The notes below the pieces were generated by a model. The model had not been told where the DNA came from and did no database searches. It saw only the letters and a program-made list of their open reading frames with translations. A stretch of DNA of 48,326 bases from an uncultured archaeon. GTDB taxonomy: Archaea; Asgardarchaeota; Lokiarchaeia; Sigyniarchaeales; SOKP01. This document shows, piece after piece, positions 3,715-48,289 of the stretch. Made by a program: the position numbers and the translations under genes. The stretch covers positions 1 to 48,326 of the forward strand of contig CAZOYD010000023.1 of assembly GCA_964583985.1 (NCBI GenBank), written 5' to 3'. Within the stretch, counting starts at the first letter, position 1. Each line of letters starts with the position of its first letter.

Positions 3715-4887
3715 TTATTGGAAAAATCGGTTGTGTTTTATTAACATCTCATCTAAAGTCTTTTTTAGTCTATTAAAAGGTTTTAAGGTACCAGAAAAAG
3801 GTGTATCAATAACATGCTCTATAAAAACATCCAAATAATCTTCTGTTATATTTAATTTCTCTAGATTCCCTTCAGATAACAGGTAGAGAAAAAAATCGTT
3901 TTTGTATTTTTTGAATGTTAAAAACCTATAATTTTGAAATCCTAACTTTACGGCAATCCAACGAGGGTATGCTCCAGTATTACCTAAAGTATTAGCTGCA
4001 ATCGCTTCTATTTTTGCTGTTAATAATGACTCGATCATTTCCTTTTCTTCTTCAAGACTTTCAGTTTCTCCAGGAAATTTAAGACCTAACTCGTTTCCTA
4101 AAAGTAACGATATAACTCCAATGGACATTGAGGATAATCCCAAATAGTCAATACGGAGTTTATCTTCCACAAAAGGGATTTCTTGATCTGAAAAAACATC
4201 ATGTAATTGTATATATTTATTAATAATAGCTCGAATCTGTGCTCCAAACTTTCGATCGATTTCGTGTTTCTCTAATTTATTTAGATTATTAACATCTTTA
4301 TCACGAACTAATTCTCCATAAAAATTAGCCATTTGTTCCAGAAAATACTTACCTTTTTTGTCTGGAAACTTACCGTAAATAATGTAGATTATTTCGTTCT
4401 TTACAAAGAATTGACATTTATCTTCCTCTCCATCTGCAGTAATGAGAAGCATCTGATCTAATTCTCCTCCCAATATACTCGTAGCTATATTATCAAGATT
4501 ATTAGTTAACTCCAATAAATAGACGAATTTCTCATTACTACAAAAAAGTTGTGTTCTCTCTGTGGAGGTGATTCCACATAGTTTAAGATATTCTTCATCT
4601 CCTTTAAGAGGAATTCTGTCATCCTCAAAGGAAAATTTGGTTTTTTCTCGTTTAACTCGCACTTTACCTTGAAATCGTTCTGATGCAACTACTGATTTCT
4701 TTTCAAAAGTTTTAGGTTGAGGTTTTATGTTTTGAACATTTCTTTCATCTACATATTCATATAAACCGGGCAAAAACTTACTACATTTGGGGCAGAGTTT
4801 ATCGGTAGGATAAGGTTTAATGACAACGTATCCACAATTCTGACATTTTATATTATCTTTTGGAACTCCAAATAATTGATTAGGAAT
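3715..4887 (-). CDS. Zn-ribbon plus tandem longin-like domain protein (extended to a putative ATT start)
   Basis: Frame stays open upstream of the TTG at 4773 through CQNC...CPKC to TGA at 4894-4896; ATT at 4887 follows GGGGTTGA; two beta-beta-alpha-beta-beta-beta-alpha-alpha segments. Confidence 0.6.
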   Translation of the reverse strand: MPNQLFGVPKDNIKCQNCGYVVIKPYPTDKLCPKCSKFLPGLYEYVDERNVQNIKPQPKTFEKKSVVASERFQGKVRVKREKTKFSFEDDRIPLKGDEEYLKLCGITSTERTQLFCSNEKFVYLLELTNNLDNIATSILGGELDQMLLITADGEEDKCQFFVKNEIIYIIYGKFPDKKGKYFLEQMANFYGELVRDKDVNNLNKLEKHEIDRKFGAQIRAIINKYIQLHDVFSDQEIPFVEDKLRIDYLGLSSMSIGVISLLLGNELGLKFPGETESLEEEKEMIESLLTAKIEAIAANTLGNTGAYPRWIAVKLGFQNYRFLTFKKYKNDFFLYLLSEGNLEKLNITEDYLDVFIEHVIDTPFSGTLKPFNRLKKTLDEMLIKHNRFFQ

Positions 4888-21263: not shown

Positions 21264-23234
21264 CTAAATTTCTTCAAGAATTGCATCTATTTGAGATTCA
21301 TATTGGGGTTCACGATAGTATCTAAGAGTAATAGCCTCAGAAGGACAATTAGACAAGCAAGACCCACATCCTCGACAGAGAATCTCATCTACATCTGCAC
21401 CGTCTGGTTTTAATGAAATCGCATTATAAGGACAATTTAATTCGCACAAACCACATTTTGCACATTTTTCCTTATCTACAGTAGCCCGAATCAGCATTAT
21501 CCTGTATTTATCTTTTCCCATTATACGGCTTACTGATGACGCGGCAGCTCTTCCTTGGGAAATTGATTCTGAGATCGATTTAGGACCTTGTGCTACTCCG
21601 GCTAATACAATACCAGGAATTTTTGTGTCAATTGGATTTAAACGTGAATGAAATTCCTTGAAAAAACCATCTTGACTATTTTCAAGCTTTAATAACTTTC
21701 CAATTTTCTCAACACCTTTTGCAGGCATCATTGCACAAGATAAAACCACTAAATCAAACTCGATTTCCTTTAAACCAGAACTTGAAAGAGTATTTTGCAT
21801 TATCACTTTAAGATTATGGGTTTCTGGATCTTCATTAATTTTCGAAATATTCGTCCGGACGTATCTTATTCCTTCCTTCCTTGAAGCTGTATAATATTCT
21901 TCATAATCCTTCCCAGCTGCTCTAATATCCATGTATGCTACACTGATATCTGCATCGGGATAGTGTTGTTTGATTAATTTTGTATTCTTAATTGAAATCA
22001 TACAACACACCCCAGCACTACAGTATGTTTGCTTATTTAAATCTCGGGATCCTACACATTGTATGAATAGTATGCGCTTTGGAGTCTTTCCATCTGATGG
22101 TCTGGCAAGATGTCCTACTGTCGGACCGTTAGGAGCAAGTAATCTTTCAAGTTTCATTTGAGTTATTACATTAGGATATACGTTATAACCTAAATAACCC
22201 GTTTCAGGCTCATATTCATCCCAACCTGTCGCTACTATGATGGTGCCTACTTTGATTTCTATAATCTCATCTTCTTGATTAAAATCAATAGCGTTCACTT
22301 CACAAGCTTTTTCGCATAATCCACATTTGATACATCTACTCATATCAATTTGAGCTTTTGAGGGAACAGCTTGAGCAAATGACACGTAAATTGCCTTTCT
22401 AGTATTCATGCCTTCATTGAATTCATCGTATCCATAGGATGGACAAACTTCAAAACAAGCTCCACATCCATTACAATCGCTCTTTACATACTTAGCTTTT
22501 TTTCTAATTTTCACATTAAAATTTCCAATGAATCCAGAAACATCTTCAACATTGCTGTAAGTATATAGGTTTAAATTGGGAGTTCGAGCTGCTTGAAGCA
22601 TAACCGGACCGAGAATTCAAATGCTACAATCATCAGTAGGAAAAGTTCGATCGAGCATAGCCATCTTACCACCTATTGTAGGGCTTTTTTCCACGAGATG
22701 CACTTCAAATCCCTCATCGGATAAATCAATTCCAGCACTCAATCCAGAAACTCCGCCTCCAATTATTAAAGCCTTTTTTGTTATATCAACTTCTTTTACA
22801 AGTATTTCTTCTAACAAACTGGCCCGAGCAACTCCAGATTTTATTGCATCTTCTGCGGTTTTTTGAGCCCCCACCTTATCTTGGCGATGTACAAAACTTG
22901 CATGTTCTCGAATGTTAACAAATTCTAAAAACGAAGGATCAATATTCATAGATTCAAGAACGCTTTTGAAAACGGGTTCATGAGTTTTAGGAGTACATGA
23001 TGCTACAACAAGGCGATTAGCGTTACTTTCATTCATTTTCTCTTTTATAAATTCCGCTCCTGGTTCAGTGCATAAACTGATATAATCTGATGCATCAACC
23101 ACATTAGGTAAGGTCTTGGCAAATTCAGCGAGTGCTTTAGTGTCAATGATTTCAGCAATATTAATTCCTCAAGCACAAACACTAACAAAAATCCGTATTT
23201 CTTCAGTATTTTTTGTAATCTCTGCTTCTACCAT
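21264..23234 (-). CDS. hdrA: Heterodisulfide reductase subunit A, selenoprotein with 2 Sec (656 aa)
   Basis: One frame from ATG 23234: RIFVSVCA-U22-GINIA (TGA 23169-23171), SCTPKTHE, NIREH, GGGVSG, DRTFPTDDCSI-U206-ILGP (TGA 22617-22619), QCVGSRD, YCSAGVCC and four ferredoxin motifs. Confidence 0.93.
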
Positions 23235-28854: not shown

Positions 28855-28905
28855 TGCACTAACACTAAAATTAAACAAAAAATAAGAATTGGGGTTACTT
28901 TTACG

Positions 28906-29274
28906 TTAGTAAATGAAAGTCATGAAGATTATCTGAAAGCGATCTATCTAATTTCAAGACATAAAAAGGGAGGGTGGGTGTCAAATTCGGAGATTTCCGA
29001 TTATTTAGGAATTAAACCCGCTTCCGTGTCTGGGATGCTACATAAATTAAAGGATAATGGTTTCATTATGTGGAAACCAAGAAGTTCTATAAGGTTAACT
29101 CAAAATGGAAAGAATGCTGCTACTCAGGTAATCAAAAATTATATAAAATTAAAAAAATTTTTCATAAGTATCCTTAAATTAGATGATAAAGATCTAATCG
29201 ATGCATTATGCTGTGGTATTGAGCATCACATTACACCTGAAGTGAGAAATTCCCTAGATAATTTATTAAACTAG
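28906..29274 (+). CDS. DtxR/MntR-family metal-dependent repressor (start uncertain, non-canonical)
   Basis: In-frame NESHEDYLKAIYLI lies upstream of the GTG at 28978; ISDYLGIKPASVSGMLHKL HTH, LTQNG and CGIEHHI. Confidence 0.85.
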   Translation, partial: LVNESHEDYLKAIYLISRHKKGGWVSNSEISDYLGIKPASVSGMLHKLKDNGFIMWKPRSSIRLTQNGKNAATQVIKNYIKLKKFFISILKLDDKDLIDALCCGIEHHITPEVRNSLDNLLN

Positions 29275-33062: not shown

Positions 33063-34721
33063 CTACAACCACTTTATTACGTAAAGTGGCCACTTTTTTA
33101 AAACACCTTTAGGGTATTTCCCACTTCTGACCTTATCTAGCATTTCTGACCGAATTTTCAAGAAATCCACTGGATCTTCTTCAATCAATTGAATTCCTAT
33201 CCCACCATCTAAAATACACTTTCTAAAATTATCATTCTTGACACAATTCAACAAAATTTCTTTAAAATTCTTTCGATTGATACATTCTGCTCCATAATTT
33301 GAATTCAATATTATCTTCCAGCTTTCATCTATACCCTTTTTGGGAGATACTAATAAAAGCAGATCAATATTTGATTTACTTTCAATCCCTAAGCATTTTA
33401 TTAACATGCGAGGATCTAAAATTTCAAAGGTATTAAAATTAAAGTAGTCACCGGCATAAACCGTATATCCTTTTTTTAAATGTAAATTTTCAGAGATTTT
33501 TATTGGATATTTTAATTGAAATTCTGAACGCAAAATTTTACCGTTAATTTGAGGGAGAGCTTGTTGATTTACTAATTGGATAACATCCCCAATATCTAAA
33601 TTGATAAATACTTTAGTATCATCAAATCGAGATATTAGAAGCTTTCCAAATTTACTGTTACTATCGGAAATTAATTGTTTTTTTCCTTTATATTCTAGTA
33701 CTGGTAAAGTTAAAGGAAATACGGTAAGAATATCTTTTTGTGAAATACCCTTAAGATCCTTATTTATTGTTGCTGCAAATGGTCCTGTCTCAGATGATAC
33801 ATATAAATTAGTAAATTTTTCTTCTCCTTTTTCCCATTTCATAAATTGACGGATTAAATCCCAATCTCTTGAAGATAATGAACTTATACTAAAAATGAGA
33901 ACTGCTTTTGATAATTTATTAGAAAGCAACTCCTGTATTTCTTTTGCGGCAGTTGTAACACCCTTTTTTTTAACTTTTAAGAGAAGTTTTTCTAACATCG
34001 GGTCAGGTTCAGGATCAACATCATTGAGGGATTTTTGTAACCCTATTTGGAATTTTTCTATATCTGCCCAACCAAGGATTGTAATTGCTGGAGCGGAAAT
34101 TACAGAGATATCATTTAATGATAATATTTTTGCGATGATGTTGAGATTTTTTGAAAATTTATATTCGAAAAGAGTATAATTCGAAGGTTTCATTATTGCT
34201 AACATTAATCTCTGGGAGAATTCGGAAGAATATAGTGAGATAAAATTGGTATTTTCTGTATTATTTAATCCATCGATATCAAGCCTTGAAGGGATAAAAA
34301 TTATTGCCGAGGATTTAGAATCCAATCCGCTCGATTCAAAAATTGCTTGCATTCCTGGTGCCCAATATAGTTTTACATTCTTTTTTGACATATGTAGCCA
34401 TTTTAGCGAATTTATATCATTATTTGTAGTGCCTGAACTATGACATACAATTAAGGGTTCGGAACCATGAAAATTTGCGAGATAATCATTAAGATCGATA
34501 GAAATTTTTTTAGAATCAGTTTTTTCTCTTTCTATTCTTTCAAAAATATCGGTTACTATAGCTAATCCTGAATTTTTTAAAATATAATCAATATAATCTT
34601 CTTTTGATGAGATATCTAACCATTTTTTCCAATTGGTAGGTTGAATTTCAGAAAATATTTTATTAAAAAGCAATTGAACCTTGGGATCAAAATCGTTTGA
34701 TATCAATCTATTATCTTTCAC
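33063..34721 (-). CDS. Divergent adenylate-forming enzyme (GH3 / phenylacetate-CoA ligase-like)
   Basis: P-loop HSSGTT...LK, NLYVSSETG and LDIGDVI correspond to the ANL/GH3 core motifs. Confidence 0.6.
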   Translation of the reverse strand: MKDNRLISNDFDPKVQLLFNKIFSEIQPTNWKKWLDISSKEDYIDYILKNSGLAIVTDIFERIEREKTDSKKISIDLNDYLANFHGSEPLIVCHSSGTTNNDINSLKWLHMSKKNVKLYWAPGMQAIFESSGLDSKSSAIIFIPSRLDIDGLNNTENTNFISLYSSEFSQRLMLAIMKPSNYTLFEYKFSKNLNIIAKILSLNDISVISAPAITILGWADIEKFQIGLQKSLNDVDPEPDPMLEKLLLKVKKKGVTTAAKEIQELLSNKLSKAVLIFSISSLSSRDWDLIRQFMKWEKGEEKFTNLYVSSETGPFAATINKDLKGISQKDILTVFPLTLPVLEYKGKKQLISDSNSKFGKLLISRFDDTKVFINLDIGDVIQLVNQQALPQINGKILRSEFQLKYPIKISENLHLKKGYTVYAGDYFNFNTFEILDPRMLIKCLGIESKSNIDLLLLVSPKKGIDESWKIILNSNYGAECINRKNFKEILLNCVKNDNFRKCILDGGIGIQLIEEDPVDFLKIRSEMLDKVRSGKYPKGVLKKWPLYVIKWL

Positions 34722-39109: not shown

Positions 39110-39148
39110 GTATCGATTTAATAAATAGTTAAATTAAAAGGTGAAAAA

Positions 39149-39382
39149 ATTATTTCTTTACCAATTGAAATAATAATACCTTTACTTCCATTATTAATTG
39201 CACAAATATTTTTTGTTATATTATGTATTATAAGTGTAGTAAATAATAAAGAAAAATCCAGGAATTATAAAATCGTTTGGCCCGAAATTATTGCCTATAT
39301 TTCATTTATTAACCCAATGCTTTACTACTTCTTAGGATGGGAAAAAATAGAGTTAAATAATATATTTATAAAAAGTGATTGA
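39149..39382 (+). CDS. Small PLDc_N/YxlE-like two-helix membrane protein with a putative ATT start (absent from the ORF track)
   Basis: IISLPIEIIIPLLPLLIAQIFFVILCIISVV...KIVWPEIIAYISFINPMLYYFLGW; AGGTGA SD at 39139-39144; in-frame TAA at 39122. Confidence 0.6.
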   Translation: MISLPIEIIIPLLPLLIAQIFFVILCIISVVNNKEKSRNYKIVWPEIIAYISFINPMLYYFLGWEKIELNNIFIKSD

Positions 39383-43041: not shown

Positions 43042-43099
43042 ATCGTAATTTTCAAATTATCATTTCTTTTTTATTTAATTATAATAACAAGTGATTTTT

Positions 43100-43381
43100 A
43101 TGAATGTAAAATTTATTATAATGAATACTAGAGATAATTGCGCCACTGCTCTAGAGGATATCGATCAAGGAGAAGAAGTCGATTATAATGGAAAAAAATT
43201 CAAAATCAACCAATCAATCCCCCTTGGGCATAAATTCGCTTTAAATGATATTAAACAAGAAAAATATGTCATAAAATATGGTCAAAGGATTGGGATTGCA
43301 ACTGAGGATATAAAATTAGGAGATTGGATTCACACACACAATATTATAAGTTATTATTTGAAGGAGTTGCTGAATCAATGA
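43100..43381 (+). CDS. UxaA-family hydro-lyase small (SAF) subunit, SuyA-like
   Basis: DNCATAL, IPLGHKFAL, VIKYGQRIG.A and WIHTHN. Confidence 0.88.
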   Translation: MNVKFIIMNTRDNCATALEDIDQGEEVDYNGKKFKINQSIPLGHKFALNDIKQEKYVIKYGQRIGIATEDIKLGDWIHTHNIISYYLKELLNQ

Positions 43382-44565
43382 ATGAAGAATTCATGGGATA
43401 TGAAAGATCAAATGGCAAGGTGGGAATAAGAAATAAAATAGCCATCATTCCTTCTGTCGTATGCGTAAATCACATAGCCGAACAAATCGCTAATAAATTG
43501 GATGATGCTATAGCAATTAAACACCCTTTGGGTTGTGGACAATTTGGACCAGATTATAATAATACATTTCGTACATTAGTTGGATTAGGAAGTAATCCAA
43601 ATATATATGGTGTTGTTGTAATAGGTTTAGGATGTGAAAATTTAAAAAGTAGGGTATTAGCAAAAAATTTAAGGCGAACGAAAAAACCTGTTGAATTCTT
43701 TGATGTACAAGATATAAAAGGGGGGTCAACTGCTGCAATTGAACACGGAATAAAAATTGGTAATCAGATGAGACAAGAAGCAAATGAATTAAAAAAAGAA
43801 ACATTTGATTTTTCTAATTTGGTACTAGGTTTGGAATGTGGTGGTTCTGATTCAATTTCGGGAATTTCAGCAAATCCTACTGTTGGGATAGTATCTGATA
43901 GAATTATTGAATTAGGAGGGACTTCAATTTTACCGGAATTCACTGAATGGATAGGAACAGAACACCTACTAATTGAAAGGGCTATAAATGAAAGTGTGGC
44001 ACATAAAATTCATAATACAATCACGGGATTTGTAGAAAATCTAAAAGATCTTGGGATTGATTTCTTAGGAGTACAACCAACTCCAGGAAATATTGAAGGT
44101 GGTCTTTCAACTATTGAGGAAAAGTCATTAGGGAACATTGCGAAATCTGGGAAATCTCCGATCCAAGGAATTCTAGATTATTCTGAACCCCCAAATACTA
44201 AAGGACTTTGGTTAATGTTAGAACCGGGACTCGATGTTGAATCTATGACAGGATTGGCAGCAGCTGGTGCACAAGTGATTCTCATGACTACTGGAAGAGG
44301 GAGCCCTTGTGGAAATCCTGTTGCTCCAGTAATAAAATTATGTGGTAATCCAAAAACTTGTGATTGGATGGCTGAAAACATTGATGTAGATGCAAGCCAG
44401 ATTATAACAGGTGAAAAAACAATAGAAGAACTTTCAGAAATTCTATGGCTAAAAATTAAAAAGACCTTAAATGGTGAGCAAACTCAGGCTGAGAAATTAG
44501 GGTTTGAAGATATAGCAATTTGGAGAAATACAGCATCTCCATTTCAATACATGCATTGTAAATAA
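43378..44565 (+). CDS. UxaA-family hydro-lyase large subunit (altronate dehydratase / SuyB-like)
   Basis: GYERSNGKVGIRN, HPLGCGQ, GLGCE, ECGGSD, GNIEGGLSTIEEKSLG and TTGRG; ATGA overlap with the small subunit. Confidence 0.9.
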   Translation: MNEEFMGYERSNGKVGIRNKIAIIPSVVCVNHIAEQIANKLDDAIAIKHPLGCGQFGPDYNNTFRTLVGLGSNPNIYGVVVIGLGCENLKSRVLAKNLRRTKKPVEFFDVQDIKGGSTAAIEHGIKIGNQMRQEANELKKETFDFSNLVLGLECGGSDSISGISANPTVGIVSDRIIELGGTSILPEFTEWIGTEHLLIERAINESVAHKIHNTITGFVENLKDLGIDFLGVQPTPGNIEGGLSTIEEKSLGNIAKSGKSPIQGILDYSEPPNTKGLWLMLEPGLDVESMTGLAAAGAQVILMTTGRGSPCGNPVAPVIKLCGNPKTCDWMAENIDVDASQIITGEKTIEELSEILWLKIKKTLNGEQTQAEKLGFEDIAIWRNTASPFQYMHCK

Positions 44566-46608: not shown

Positions 46609-46818
46609 TCAAATATACCATCCTAACGATTATTTATAAGAGATTTTTGGAATTAAAATTAATTACGATTATATTATATTTTCGATATGCATTTAATTCA
46701 ATTCAGATTATGATCTTTAAATTTAATTTTATAAATACTTAATAATGAATAGATTGAAATTTATAATTATTAGAATATTTAATTCCTTAATTTGAATCAT
46801 CATTGGAGTGGATAAAAA

Positions 46819-47100
46819 ATTCCAAAATTATTCGACAATAAAGAAAAAAAATTCTCTTTATTTCTTAACAAAAATAGATGTGGTGGAGATCAGTGCTATA
46901 ATTGTATCGCTGTGTGTCCAACTGGAATTTTAGAGCCCGGAGATGAACTTAATATGAGGGTGGCATATCTACCTCGAGTTAAAGCAGGAAAAGAGGTGTA
47001 TTGCACGGGATGTCGTCGTTGTGAATATGCTTGTCCAGAATGGTGCATTTATGTGTTAGATGAAGAGGAAAAACCTTCAAATGAAAAAGCTAAAACGTGA
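46819..47100 (+). CDS. 2x[4Fe-4S] delta subunit of a 2-oxoacid:ferredoxin oxidoreductase, putative ATT start
   Basis: First cluster CGGDQCYNCIAVCP lies mostly upstream of the GTG at 46912; in-frame TAA at 46813; GGAGTGGA SD, then ATT at 46819; second cluster CTGCRRCEYACP. Confidence 0.8.
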   Translation: MPKLFDNKEKKFSLFLNKNRCGGDQCYNCIAVCPTGILEPGDELNMRVAYLPRVKAGKEVYCTGCRRCEYACPEWCIYVLDEEEKPSNEKAKT

Positions 47101-47116
47101 ATTGGTGATATAAACG

Positions 47117-48289
47117 ATAAGTGAAAATAGAAAACGATTTCTAGAACCTGGAAGGCATCTAATGATGGGTAACGTAGCAATGTCAGAAGGAGCTCTTTCA
47201 GCAGGATTAAGTTATTTCGGAGGATATCCTATAACACCGAGTACAGAAGTAATAGAGCATTTAGCTATAAGACTTCCTGAAGTAGGTGGTGTTTGCATGC
47301 AAATGGAAGATGAATTAGCTTCTATAAATTCTGTAATAGGGGCTTCTTTAGTAGGAGCTAAAGCCATGACTGCAACTTCAGGACCTGGTTTATCATTAAT
47401 GGTAGAAACGATTTCCATGGCTGCTAATTTAGAAATACCATTTGTATTTTGCGACGTCCAAAGAAACGGTCCCGGAACTGGATTTGTCACGGAACCACAC
47501 CATAATGATTTAGGATTAGTGAGATTTTCAGGGAATGGCGAGTTTCAAGTCATCGCGTTGGCTCCAATGACCTGTCAAGAACTATTCGACTTGACCATCA
47601 CTGCTTTTAATTTTGCTGAGACTTATAGGTGCCCAGTCTTCATCCTTTCTGATGCATATCTTGGACATCTTCATGAGATTGTAAAAATTCCTCCTAAAGA
47701 AGAAATATTAAAGAGAGTAATCAATAGAGAATTACCTAATCCCGAAGATTATGTGAAAAAATTCACATATATTGACGATATTAGTGGAGAAATCGTCATT
47801 CCAAAACCCCCTCAAATGGGAACTGATTATTGCCCGGGATTATTTATACATCAGCCACATAATTACGAGGGTTTACCAACCCCAAAACCGATGCAGTTTA
47901 TTAAATCAATAATGGATAAGGTAAACAAAAATAAAGATAAAATCTGTCTTACGGACAAATATAAATTAGATGATGCTGAAATCGTCATCATAGCTTATGG
48001 ATTGCCTGTACGGGCTAGTTATAGGGCAGTAGACATCGCAAGAAATGAAGGAATAAAAGTTGGAATTTTTAGGTTAATAACAGTGTGGCCATTTCCAGAT
48101 GAACAAGTAAAAGATGTGGTTAAAGATGCGAAAGCGATAATTGTACCCGAATTAAACTATACGGGAATTATCGCAGAACAAGTTGAAAGGGTTACAAAAT
48201 TGGAGACTCCGGTTATAAAGATTCCTCAAGTATGTGAATTTCATCATCCAGATGATATTCTTAAAGTTTTAAGAGAGGTGGCTAAATAA
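47117..48289 (+). CDS. 2-oxoacid:ferredoxin oxidoreductase alpha subunit (start ATA 47117 or ATG 47162)
   Basis: GNVAMSEGA, GYPITPSTE, QMEDELAS, TATSGPG, VQRNGPGTG and VPELN. Confidence 0.92.
   Translation: MSENRKRFLEPGRHLMMGNVAMSEGALSAGLSYFGGYPITPSTEVIEHLAIRLPEVGGVCMQMEDELASINSVIGASLVGAKAMTATSGPGLSLMVETISMAANLEIPFVFCDVQRNGPGTGFVTEPHHNDLGLVRFSGNGEFQVIALAPMTCQELFDLTITAFNFAETYRCPVFILSDAYLGHLHEIVKIPPKEEILKRVINRELPNPEDYVKKFTYIDDISGEIVIPKPPQMGTDYCPGLFIHQPHNYEGLPTPKPMQFIKSIMDKVNKNKDKICLTDKYKLDDAEIVIIAYGLPVRASYRAVDIARNEGIKVGIFRLITVWPFPDEQVKDVVKDAKAIIVPELNYTGIIAEQVERVTKLETPVIKIPQVCEFHHPDDILKVLREVAK

Follow-up and report, generated by a model that had tools for sequence, protein, structure and literature searches.

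How does a gene begin translation when its reading frame offers no ATG, GTG or TTG ahead of an indispensable N-terminal element? This question is raised by a ferredoxin gene of an uncultured Loki-type Asgard archaeon (Promethearchaeota), where the first cysteine cluster lies between an in-frame TAA and the first GTG. The window analysed here is a stretch of 48,326 nucleotides (contig CAZOYD010000023.1 of assembly GCA_964583985.1, a 3.8-Mb, 138-contig metagenome assembly with about 31% G+C). The initial annotation proposed that this gene and at least three others among about 45 in the window start at near-cognate codons behind Shine-Dalgarno (SD) motifs, and that start selection is relaxed and SD-driven in this lineage, with systematic mis-annotation as a consequence. 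We find that its coordinates are correct and that its interpretation is supported, with corrections. Five intact genes in the window and at least several dozen genome-wide most likely start translation at ATT, ATA, ATC or ACG just behind a ribosome-binding site, such that gene finders accepting only ATG/GTG/TTG cut them short or miss them.

Results

Start columns of the five genes

The positions of the five genes and of their start regions are collected in Table 1. The 16S rRNA of the same assembly ends in the canonical GGATCACCTCCT, so that the expected SD sequence is a part of GGAGGTGATCC. The spacers of the five cases are 4-7 nt.

Table 1. Features of the five genes with proposed near-cognate starts, and of other frames considered, in positions of the window.
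Gene	Feature	Position	Strand
Ferredoxin	SD-like motif GGAGTGGA	46805-46812	+
Ferredoxin	GTG in another frame, opening 41 codons that overlap the 5' end of the gene	46808
Ferredoxin	In-frame TAA, followed by AAA	46813
Ferredoxin	2x[4Fe-4S] ferredoxin, delta subunit of a 2-oxoacid:ferredoxin oxidoreductase, proposed start ATT 46819	46819-47100	+
Ferredoxin	A-run	46844-46850
Ferredoxin	First canonical in-frame codon, GTG, the Val in the final Cys-Pro of the first cluster motif	46912
KorA	SD core GGTGA, 3 nt after the ferredoxin stop codon	47104-47108	+
KorA	TAA stop	47111
KorA	KorA (alpha subunit), proposed start ACG 47114	47114-48289	+
KorA	ATA, the next codon, with an 8-nt spacer	47117
KorA	ATG, judged to be internal	47162
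Zn-ribbon gene	SD-like GGGGTTGA, followed by a 6-nt spacer	4901-4894	-
Zn-ribbon gene	TGA	4896-4894	-
Zn-ribbon gene	Conserved 390-aa protein with an N-terminal Zn ribbon and no Pfam family, proposed start ATT 4887	3715-4887	-
Zn-ribbon gene	First TTG, after the Zn ribbon	4773	-
Small membrane gene	SD core GGTGA	39140-39144	+
Small membrane gene	Small two-helix membrane protein upstream of an ABC ATPase, proposed start ATT 39149 or ATT 39152	39149-39382	+
DtxR	Opening of the frame	28855
DtxR	GGGGTT	28891-28896
DtxR	DtxR-family repressor, probable start ACG 28903	28903-29274	+
DtxR	EDYLKAIY helix, encoded from about this position	28924
DtxR	First canonical codon, GTG	28978
HdrA-like gene	Frame that lacks a start	22617-23168

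For the ferredoxin, we retrieved 66 loci around KorA homologues, of which 54 Asgard loci carry the same ferredoxin upstream. At the column of the window's ATT, the codon is ATT in 44 loci, ATA in 6, ATC in 2, ATG in 1 and GTG in 1, with an in-frame stop lying 0-2 codons upstream in 25 loci. In 24 loci there is no canonical codon at all between that stop and the first Cys, although in about half of the loci an in-frame TTG or GTG lies inside the SD-like motif or a few codons downstream, and those loci alone would not force a start at ATT, ATA or ATC (ATH). What is conserved upstream is not protein but a DNA motif, GAGTTGA or a close variant, which ends 5-7 nt before the column in the 40 of 54 loci where our pattern found one, and whose own reading frame relative to the gene varies. 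The ATG-bearing and GTG-bearing loci use the same motif and spacing. An alignment of 235 nt upstream among close relatives shows a conserved AT-rich block resembling a promoter and short 5'UTR, in which the single ATG is not conserved. In addition, Pfam 4Fe-4S (Fer4) models cover residues 16-89 of the ATT-start protein, so that a start at GTG 46912 destroys cluster 1. This is the signature of a start codon column, and ATT 46819 is hence most likely the start.

For KorA, all 56 loci conserve, as protein with synonymous variation, a 16-residue extension ending in KRFL..G.HLMMGN, which argues that ATG 47162 is internal; the Pfam POR_N domain begins at residue 25. Six codons before KRFL the loci have ATG (38), TTG (7), GTG (2) or ATA (2, from two other lineages), and the window alone has ACG. 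The context ttggtgatataa is identical in a 95%-identical orthologue, where ATG follows it: that locus reads ttggtgatataaATG where the window reads ttggtgatataaACG. The start homologous to the ATG of the relatives is thus ACG 47114, at the same 5-nt spacer, and not ATA 47117 as the initial annotation proposed. As this start lies 13 nt after the ferredoxin stop, coupling to upstream translation may help it.

Of 20 orthologues of the Zn-ribbon gene, 12 have no canonical codon before the Zn ribbon, and 11 of those have an SD-like motif followed by ATT, ATC or ATA at the column that begins Ile-Pro/Ser-Asn. A more distant orthologue has ATG.

The small membrane gene and the DtxR gene are recent losses of ATG, judged against their closest orthologues. 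The same-genus orthologue of the small membrane gene lies in the same position before the ABC ATPase gene, has aaaaggtga, 9 nt and then ATG, and encodes a homologous two-helix protein, whereas the window has the same SD followed by ATT ATT and no canonical start before the C-terminal part of the ORF. This ORF has detectable homologues in only 2 of 39 other family genomes searched, and its match to Pfam PF13396 (PLDc_N) is weak (E 1e-3, below the family cut-off). The DtxR orthologues examined have a canonical start, mostly ATG, about 7-12 codons before the EDYLKAIY helix, and the closest reads ATG ACG GAA GTT AAT GAA where the window reads TTT ACG TTA GTA AAT GAA. ACG 28903 is the best candidate, and the Pfam Fe_dep_repress domain starts at residue 5 of the ACG-start protein, but this is the least certain of the five cases and gene decay is not excluded.

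A genome-wide test of near-cognate starts

To determine whether these cases reflect a habit of the genome, we scanned both strands for GGTGA followed by 4-8 nt and a codon that opens at least 100 codons, has an in-frame stop within 10 codons upstream with no canonical start in between, and has no canonical start in the next 6 codons. The hits per occurrence were 34/481 for ATG, 3/139 for GTG, 8/430 for TTG, 13/852 for ATT, 7/662 for ATA, 4/401 for ATC, 2/118 for ACG, 3/165 for CTG, 0/599 for AAG and AGG together, 8/3849 for A/T-only control codons and 15/14472 for all other sense codons. ATH codons (24 of 1915) are therefore enriched over other sense codons (OR 12, p 1.6e-13) and over the A/T-only controls (OR 6, p 1.5e-6), and ATH, ACG and CTG open long frames at rates like those of GTG and TTG (1.0-1.8% against 1.9-2.2%), compared with a background of 0.10%. 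Eighteen of the 24 ATH hits have a 6-nt spacer, the same optimum as ATG with 17 of 34, while background hits would be spread evenly over the five spacings. The hits begin recognisable N-termini, including those of CutA, a small-GTPase P-loop, receiver domains of response regulators, TFB, TrmB, a thiolase and an M20 peptidase. For the thiolase, the ACG aligns with the ATG of two orthologues, and another genus has ATT there.

With an energy-based SD, the excess over background is about 36 ATH and 8 ACG/CTG starts among 3166 long ORFs. As short genes such as the ferredoxin are excluded from that count, we estimate that at least 1.5% of genes, and likely 2-3%, start this way, rather than the roughly 10% seen in this window. 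Independently, 68 ORFs have at least 40 codons without a canonical start, where about 12 are expected by our own calculation from base composition, although many of these ORFs have a same-strand open frame ending nearby and may be split genes or simply preceded by an adjacent gene. In 0.8-Mb samples of two complete genomes from another family of the order, ATH hits were 3/444 and 3/457, against a background of 0.25% and 0.16%, and neither enrichment is significant (OR 2.7, p 0.14; OR 4.2, p 0.06). The habit may be weaker there, or the sample may be too small.

The start column of aIF1

One of the ORFs with a long leader, on another contig of the assembly, is the SUI1/aIF1 gene (Pfam PF01253), which encodes the factor that proofreads start codons. 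In 24 loci of the window's family, the column six codons before the first Cys of the Zn knuckle is ATT (22) or ATC (2), behind a conserved AGGTTGTGA and with no canonical codon before the knuckle. In other families of the order the corresponding column holds ATA, TTG, GTG or ATG.

Discussion

Here, we propose, on the basis of metagenome-assembled sequence and with a probability of about 0.85, that these are ordinary, intact genes whose translation starts at a near-cognate codon (AUU, AUA, AUC, sometimes ACG or CUG) placed about 5-7 nt behind an SD sequence that pairs with the 3' end of the 16S rRNA. This is based on the start column swapping among ATG, GTG, TTG, ATH and ACG between orthologues, on in-frame stops lying directly upstream of that column, and on an SD spacing that is the same as for ATG starts. 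We infer that the SD places the 30S subunit so that the near-cognate codon sits in the P site, and that the initiator Met-tRNA then tolerates a third-base mismatch (second-base for ACG). The SD-like motif of the conserved cases (GAGTTGA, AGGTTGTGA) does, however, have an internal mismatch to the anti-SD, and the initiator tRNA was not found in this assembly by ARAGORN, by an anticodon-arm pattern or with the Rfam tRNA model, only 22-23 tRNAs being detectable. We draw a distinction between the weak starts that are old, namely those of the ferredoxin (nearly all of the roughly 54 Loki-type loci examined), the Zn-ribbon gene and aIF1, which are conserved over a family or more and look like maintained, possibly regulatory, use rather than plain sloppiness, and those that are recent changes in this genome, namely ATG to ACG in KorA, ATG to ATT in the small membrane gene and the loss of ATG in DtxR.

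Could the missing ATGs instead be sequencing or assembly errors, or the genes pseudogenes? The 138-contig metagenome assembly and the fact that three of the five cases are unique to this genome would allow for this, but the ferredoxin, Zn-ribbon and aIF1 starts recur in dozens of independently assembled genomes, which excludes it for the conserved cases. For the unique cases it is implausible, as all five reading frames are full-length and well conserved (the closest KorA relatives are 94-95% identical in protein), and random errors would neither pick start codons three times in 48 kb nor give the sharp 6-nt spacing peak seen genome-wide. Equally improbable is a short upstream exon with an ATG, joined by removal of a roughly 30-nt bulge-helix-bulge (BHB) mini-intron. 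Of 122 ORFs with a leader of at least 30 codons and no start, 68 do have a same-strand open frame ending nearby. However, although no folding for a BHB was run, stops abut the ferredoxin start column in relatives, the conserved element directly before it is the SD-like motif at fixed spacing and not coding sequence, the single ATG-bearing and GTG-bearing orthologues use the same column and motif, and the position of KorA so close behind the preceding stop leaves no room for an exon plus intron.

For the lineage-specific cases, a start at the next canonical codon (KorA ATG 47162, DtxR GTG 28978) would give shortened proteins, functional for KorA and probably dead for DtxR. In support of this, ATG 47162 has its own SD-like GGAAGG (dG -5.5) and lies before the POR_N domain, and GTG 28978 follows a strong SD-like GGAGGGTGG (dG -10.5). 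We consider it unlikely, because the KorA extension is conserved as protein with a start at one column, and because the SD-like stretch before GTG 28978 is the conserved KGGW coding motif, present in every orthologue, while a start there removes the first helix and part of the DNA-binding domain. Nevertheless, as only this genome carries the change in KorA, DtxR and the small membrane gene, a downstream start or gene decay cannot be fully excluded for these. A start of the ferredoxin at GTG 46808, reaching the ferredoxin frame by a frameshift in the A-run, can be all but dismissed, since this GTG is part of the SD-like motif and is absent in relatives, which have GAGTTGA, and since the position of that motif relative to the ferredoxin frame varies between loci.

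To our knowledge, non-AUG starts have not been described in Asgard archaea, as full-text literature searches found no report of them. The nearest described systems are bacterial, namely E. coli infC (IF3) and pcnB and the S. aureus genes infC, cvfC1, ccpN and citZ (PMC4705826; PMC13009471), the four S. aureus genes having AUU/AUA starts behind extended SDs that run at about 10% of AUG efficiency (PMC13009471). There too, a near-cognate AUH codon at the optimal distance behind a strong SD is conserved between species and interchangeable with AUG, and the gene of the fidelity factor itself carries one. Bacteria, however, have only a handful of such genes per genome and use IF3, whereas here there are dozens of genes in an archaeon whose initiation factors are of the eukaryotic type (aIF1, aIF1A, aIF2), and ACG and CTG are also used.

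What might the weak start of aIF1 mean? Bacterial IF3 is autoregulated through its AUU start (PMC4705826), and eukaryotic eIF1, the homologue of aIF1, through an AUG in poor context (Ivanov et al. 2010, as cited in PMC6237735 and PMC4705826). In the aIF1 gene the weak feature is the codon itself, as in bacterial infC, and not the context. In addition, aIF1 is reported to make Saccharolobus solfataricus 30S complexes reject AUU (PMC4705826; PMC6237735), so that the components of a feedback loop exist in archaea, although in that system AUU is rejected when aIF1 is present, while here it is the apparent natural start of many genes. We infer a negative feedback like that of infC, which is plausible. 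More tentatively, and somewhat less likely than not, third-base stringency may be constitutively low enough in this family of Lokiarchaeia that AUH behind a good SD is a regular start codon class, on a par with GUG and UUG, with the cell setting that stringency through aIF1 and a fixed set of genes (the OFOR ferredoxin, regulators, aIF1) being tuned by it. Frequent near-cognate initiation, and an AUU start on aIF1 itself, bear on how start-codon stringency and its feedback control evolved between bacteria (IF3/AUU) and eukaryotes (eIF1/context).

Our findings also bear on annotation, since the Asgard proteomes used for eukaryogenesis studies are mostly predicted with ATG/GTG/TTG-only gene finders, and a few percent of genes would be truncated, mis-started or missed, including metal clusters, Zn ribbons and DNA-binding helices. 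Contrary to the systematic mis-annotation suggested initially, the outcome depends on the pipeline. ATT, ATC, ATA and CTG are permitted starts in NCBI genetic code table 11, and some NCBI entries for this ferredoxin already begin MPKL, which is the ATT read as Met, while others begin at in-frame GTG or TTG codons and others are truncated to 55-65 residues and lack cluster 1.

Not every approach separated near-cognate starts from background. Energy-based SD scoring of all leader codons gave only a weak signal, as few ATG genes here have a strong SD (21% at dG <= -6) and neighbouring codons share the same SD, which is why the GGTGA-plus-spacer test was used in its place. A codon-usage log-odds model had too little power (0.1 nat per codon) to call short coding leaders, and upstream nucleotide profiles of the first ATH after a stop were confounded by the periodicity of in-frame stops. 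GGAG-type motifs at 6-11 nt showed no ATH enrichment, and a perfect GAGTTGA motif is not special to ATH genes, as it also precedes ordinary ATG, GTG and TTG starts. Finally, a sixth frame in the window that lacks a start is not a near-cognate case but the continuation of an ATG-started HdrA-like gene read through TGA as selenocysteine.

Additional features of the window and the assembly

The aIF1/SUI1 gene has no ATG/GTG/TTG for 61 codons, and its conserved start is ATT or ATC behind AGGTTGTGA in all 24 loci of the family that we examined. Upstream of the ferredoxin start, a stretch of about 85 nt is more conserved among relatives than the flanking intergenic DNA. This stretch contains AAATACTTAATAA and TTTATAATTATT, and is probably a promoter plus a regulator site for the OFOR operon.

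An apparent further start-less gene in the window was found to be one of three pieces into which standard ORF calling splits an HdrA-like flavoprotein of 656 residues. The full-length protein reads through two in-frame TGA codons (positions 22 and 206, in the motifs VCA-U-GINI and DDCSI-U-ILGP) and is presumably a selenoprotein; a tRNA-Sec (anticodon tca) was found in the assembly using ARAGORN. Only 22-23 tRNA genes were detectable in the whole assembly by ARAGORN or Rfam RF00005, many of them with predicted introns, and no tRNA-Met was found. The tRNA genes are probably heavily interrupted.

Of 122 long ORFs in the whole assembly that have at least 30 codons without a canonical start, 68 have a same-strand open frame ending within about 120 nt upstream, which is compatible either with split genes (through mini-introns or frameshifts) or with adjacent operon genes. 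One example is a proteasome-activating-nucleotidase-like N-terminal piece of only 128 codons on contig C42. Within the window, an altronate/galactarate dehydratase-like gene has its second and C-terminal domains in one ORF, while a separate, overlapping ORF of 96 codons lies upstream and may be its N-terminal domain in another frame.

Coordinates of additional features in the window and on contig C19 of the same assembly
Feature	Sequence	Position	Strand
HdrA-like flavoprotein	window	21264-23234	-
Altronate/galactarate dehydratase-like gene	window	43091-44565	+
ORF with its second and C-terminal domains	window	43306-44565	
Upstream overlapping 96-codon ORF	window	43091-43381	
Conserved stretch upstream of the ferredoxin start	window	46725-46800	
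aIF1/SUI1 gene	contig C19 (locus L130:673-1011)	about 34272-34610	-
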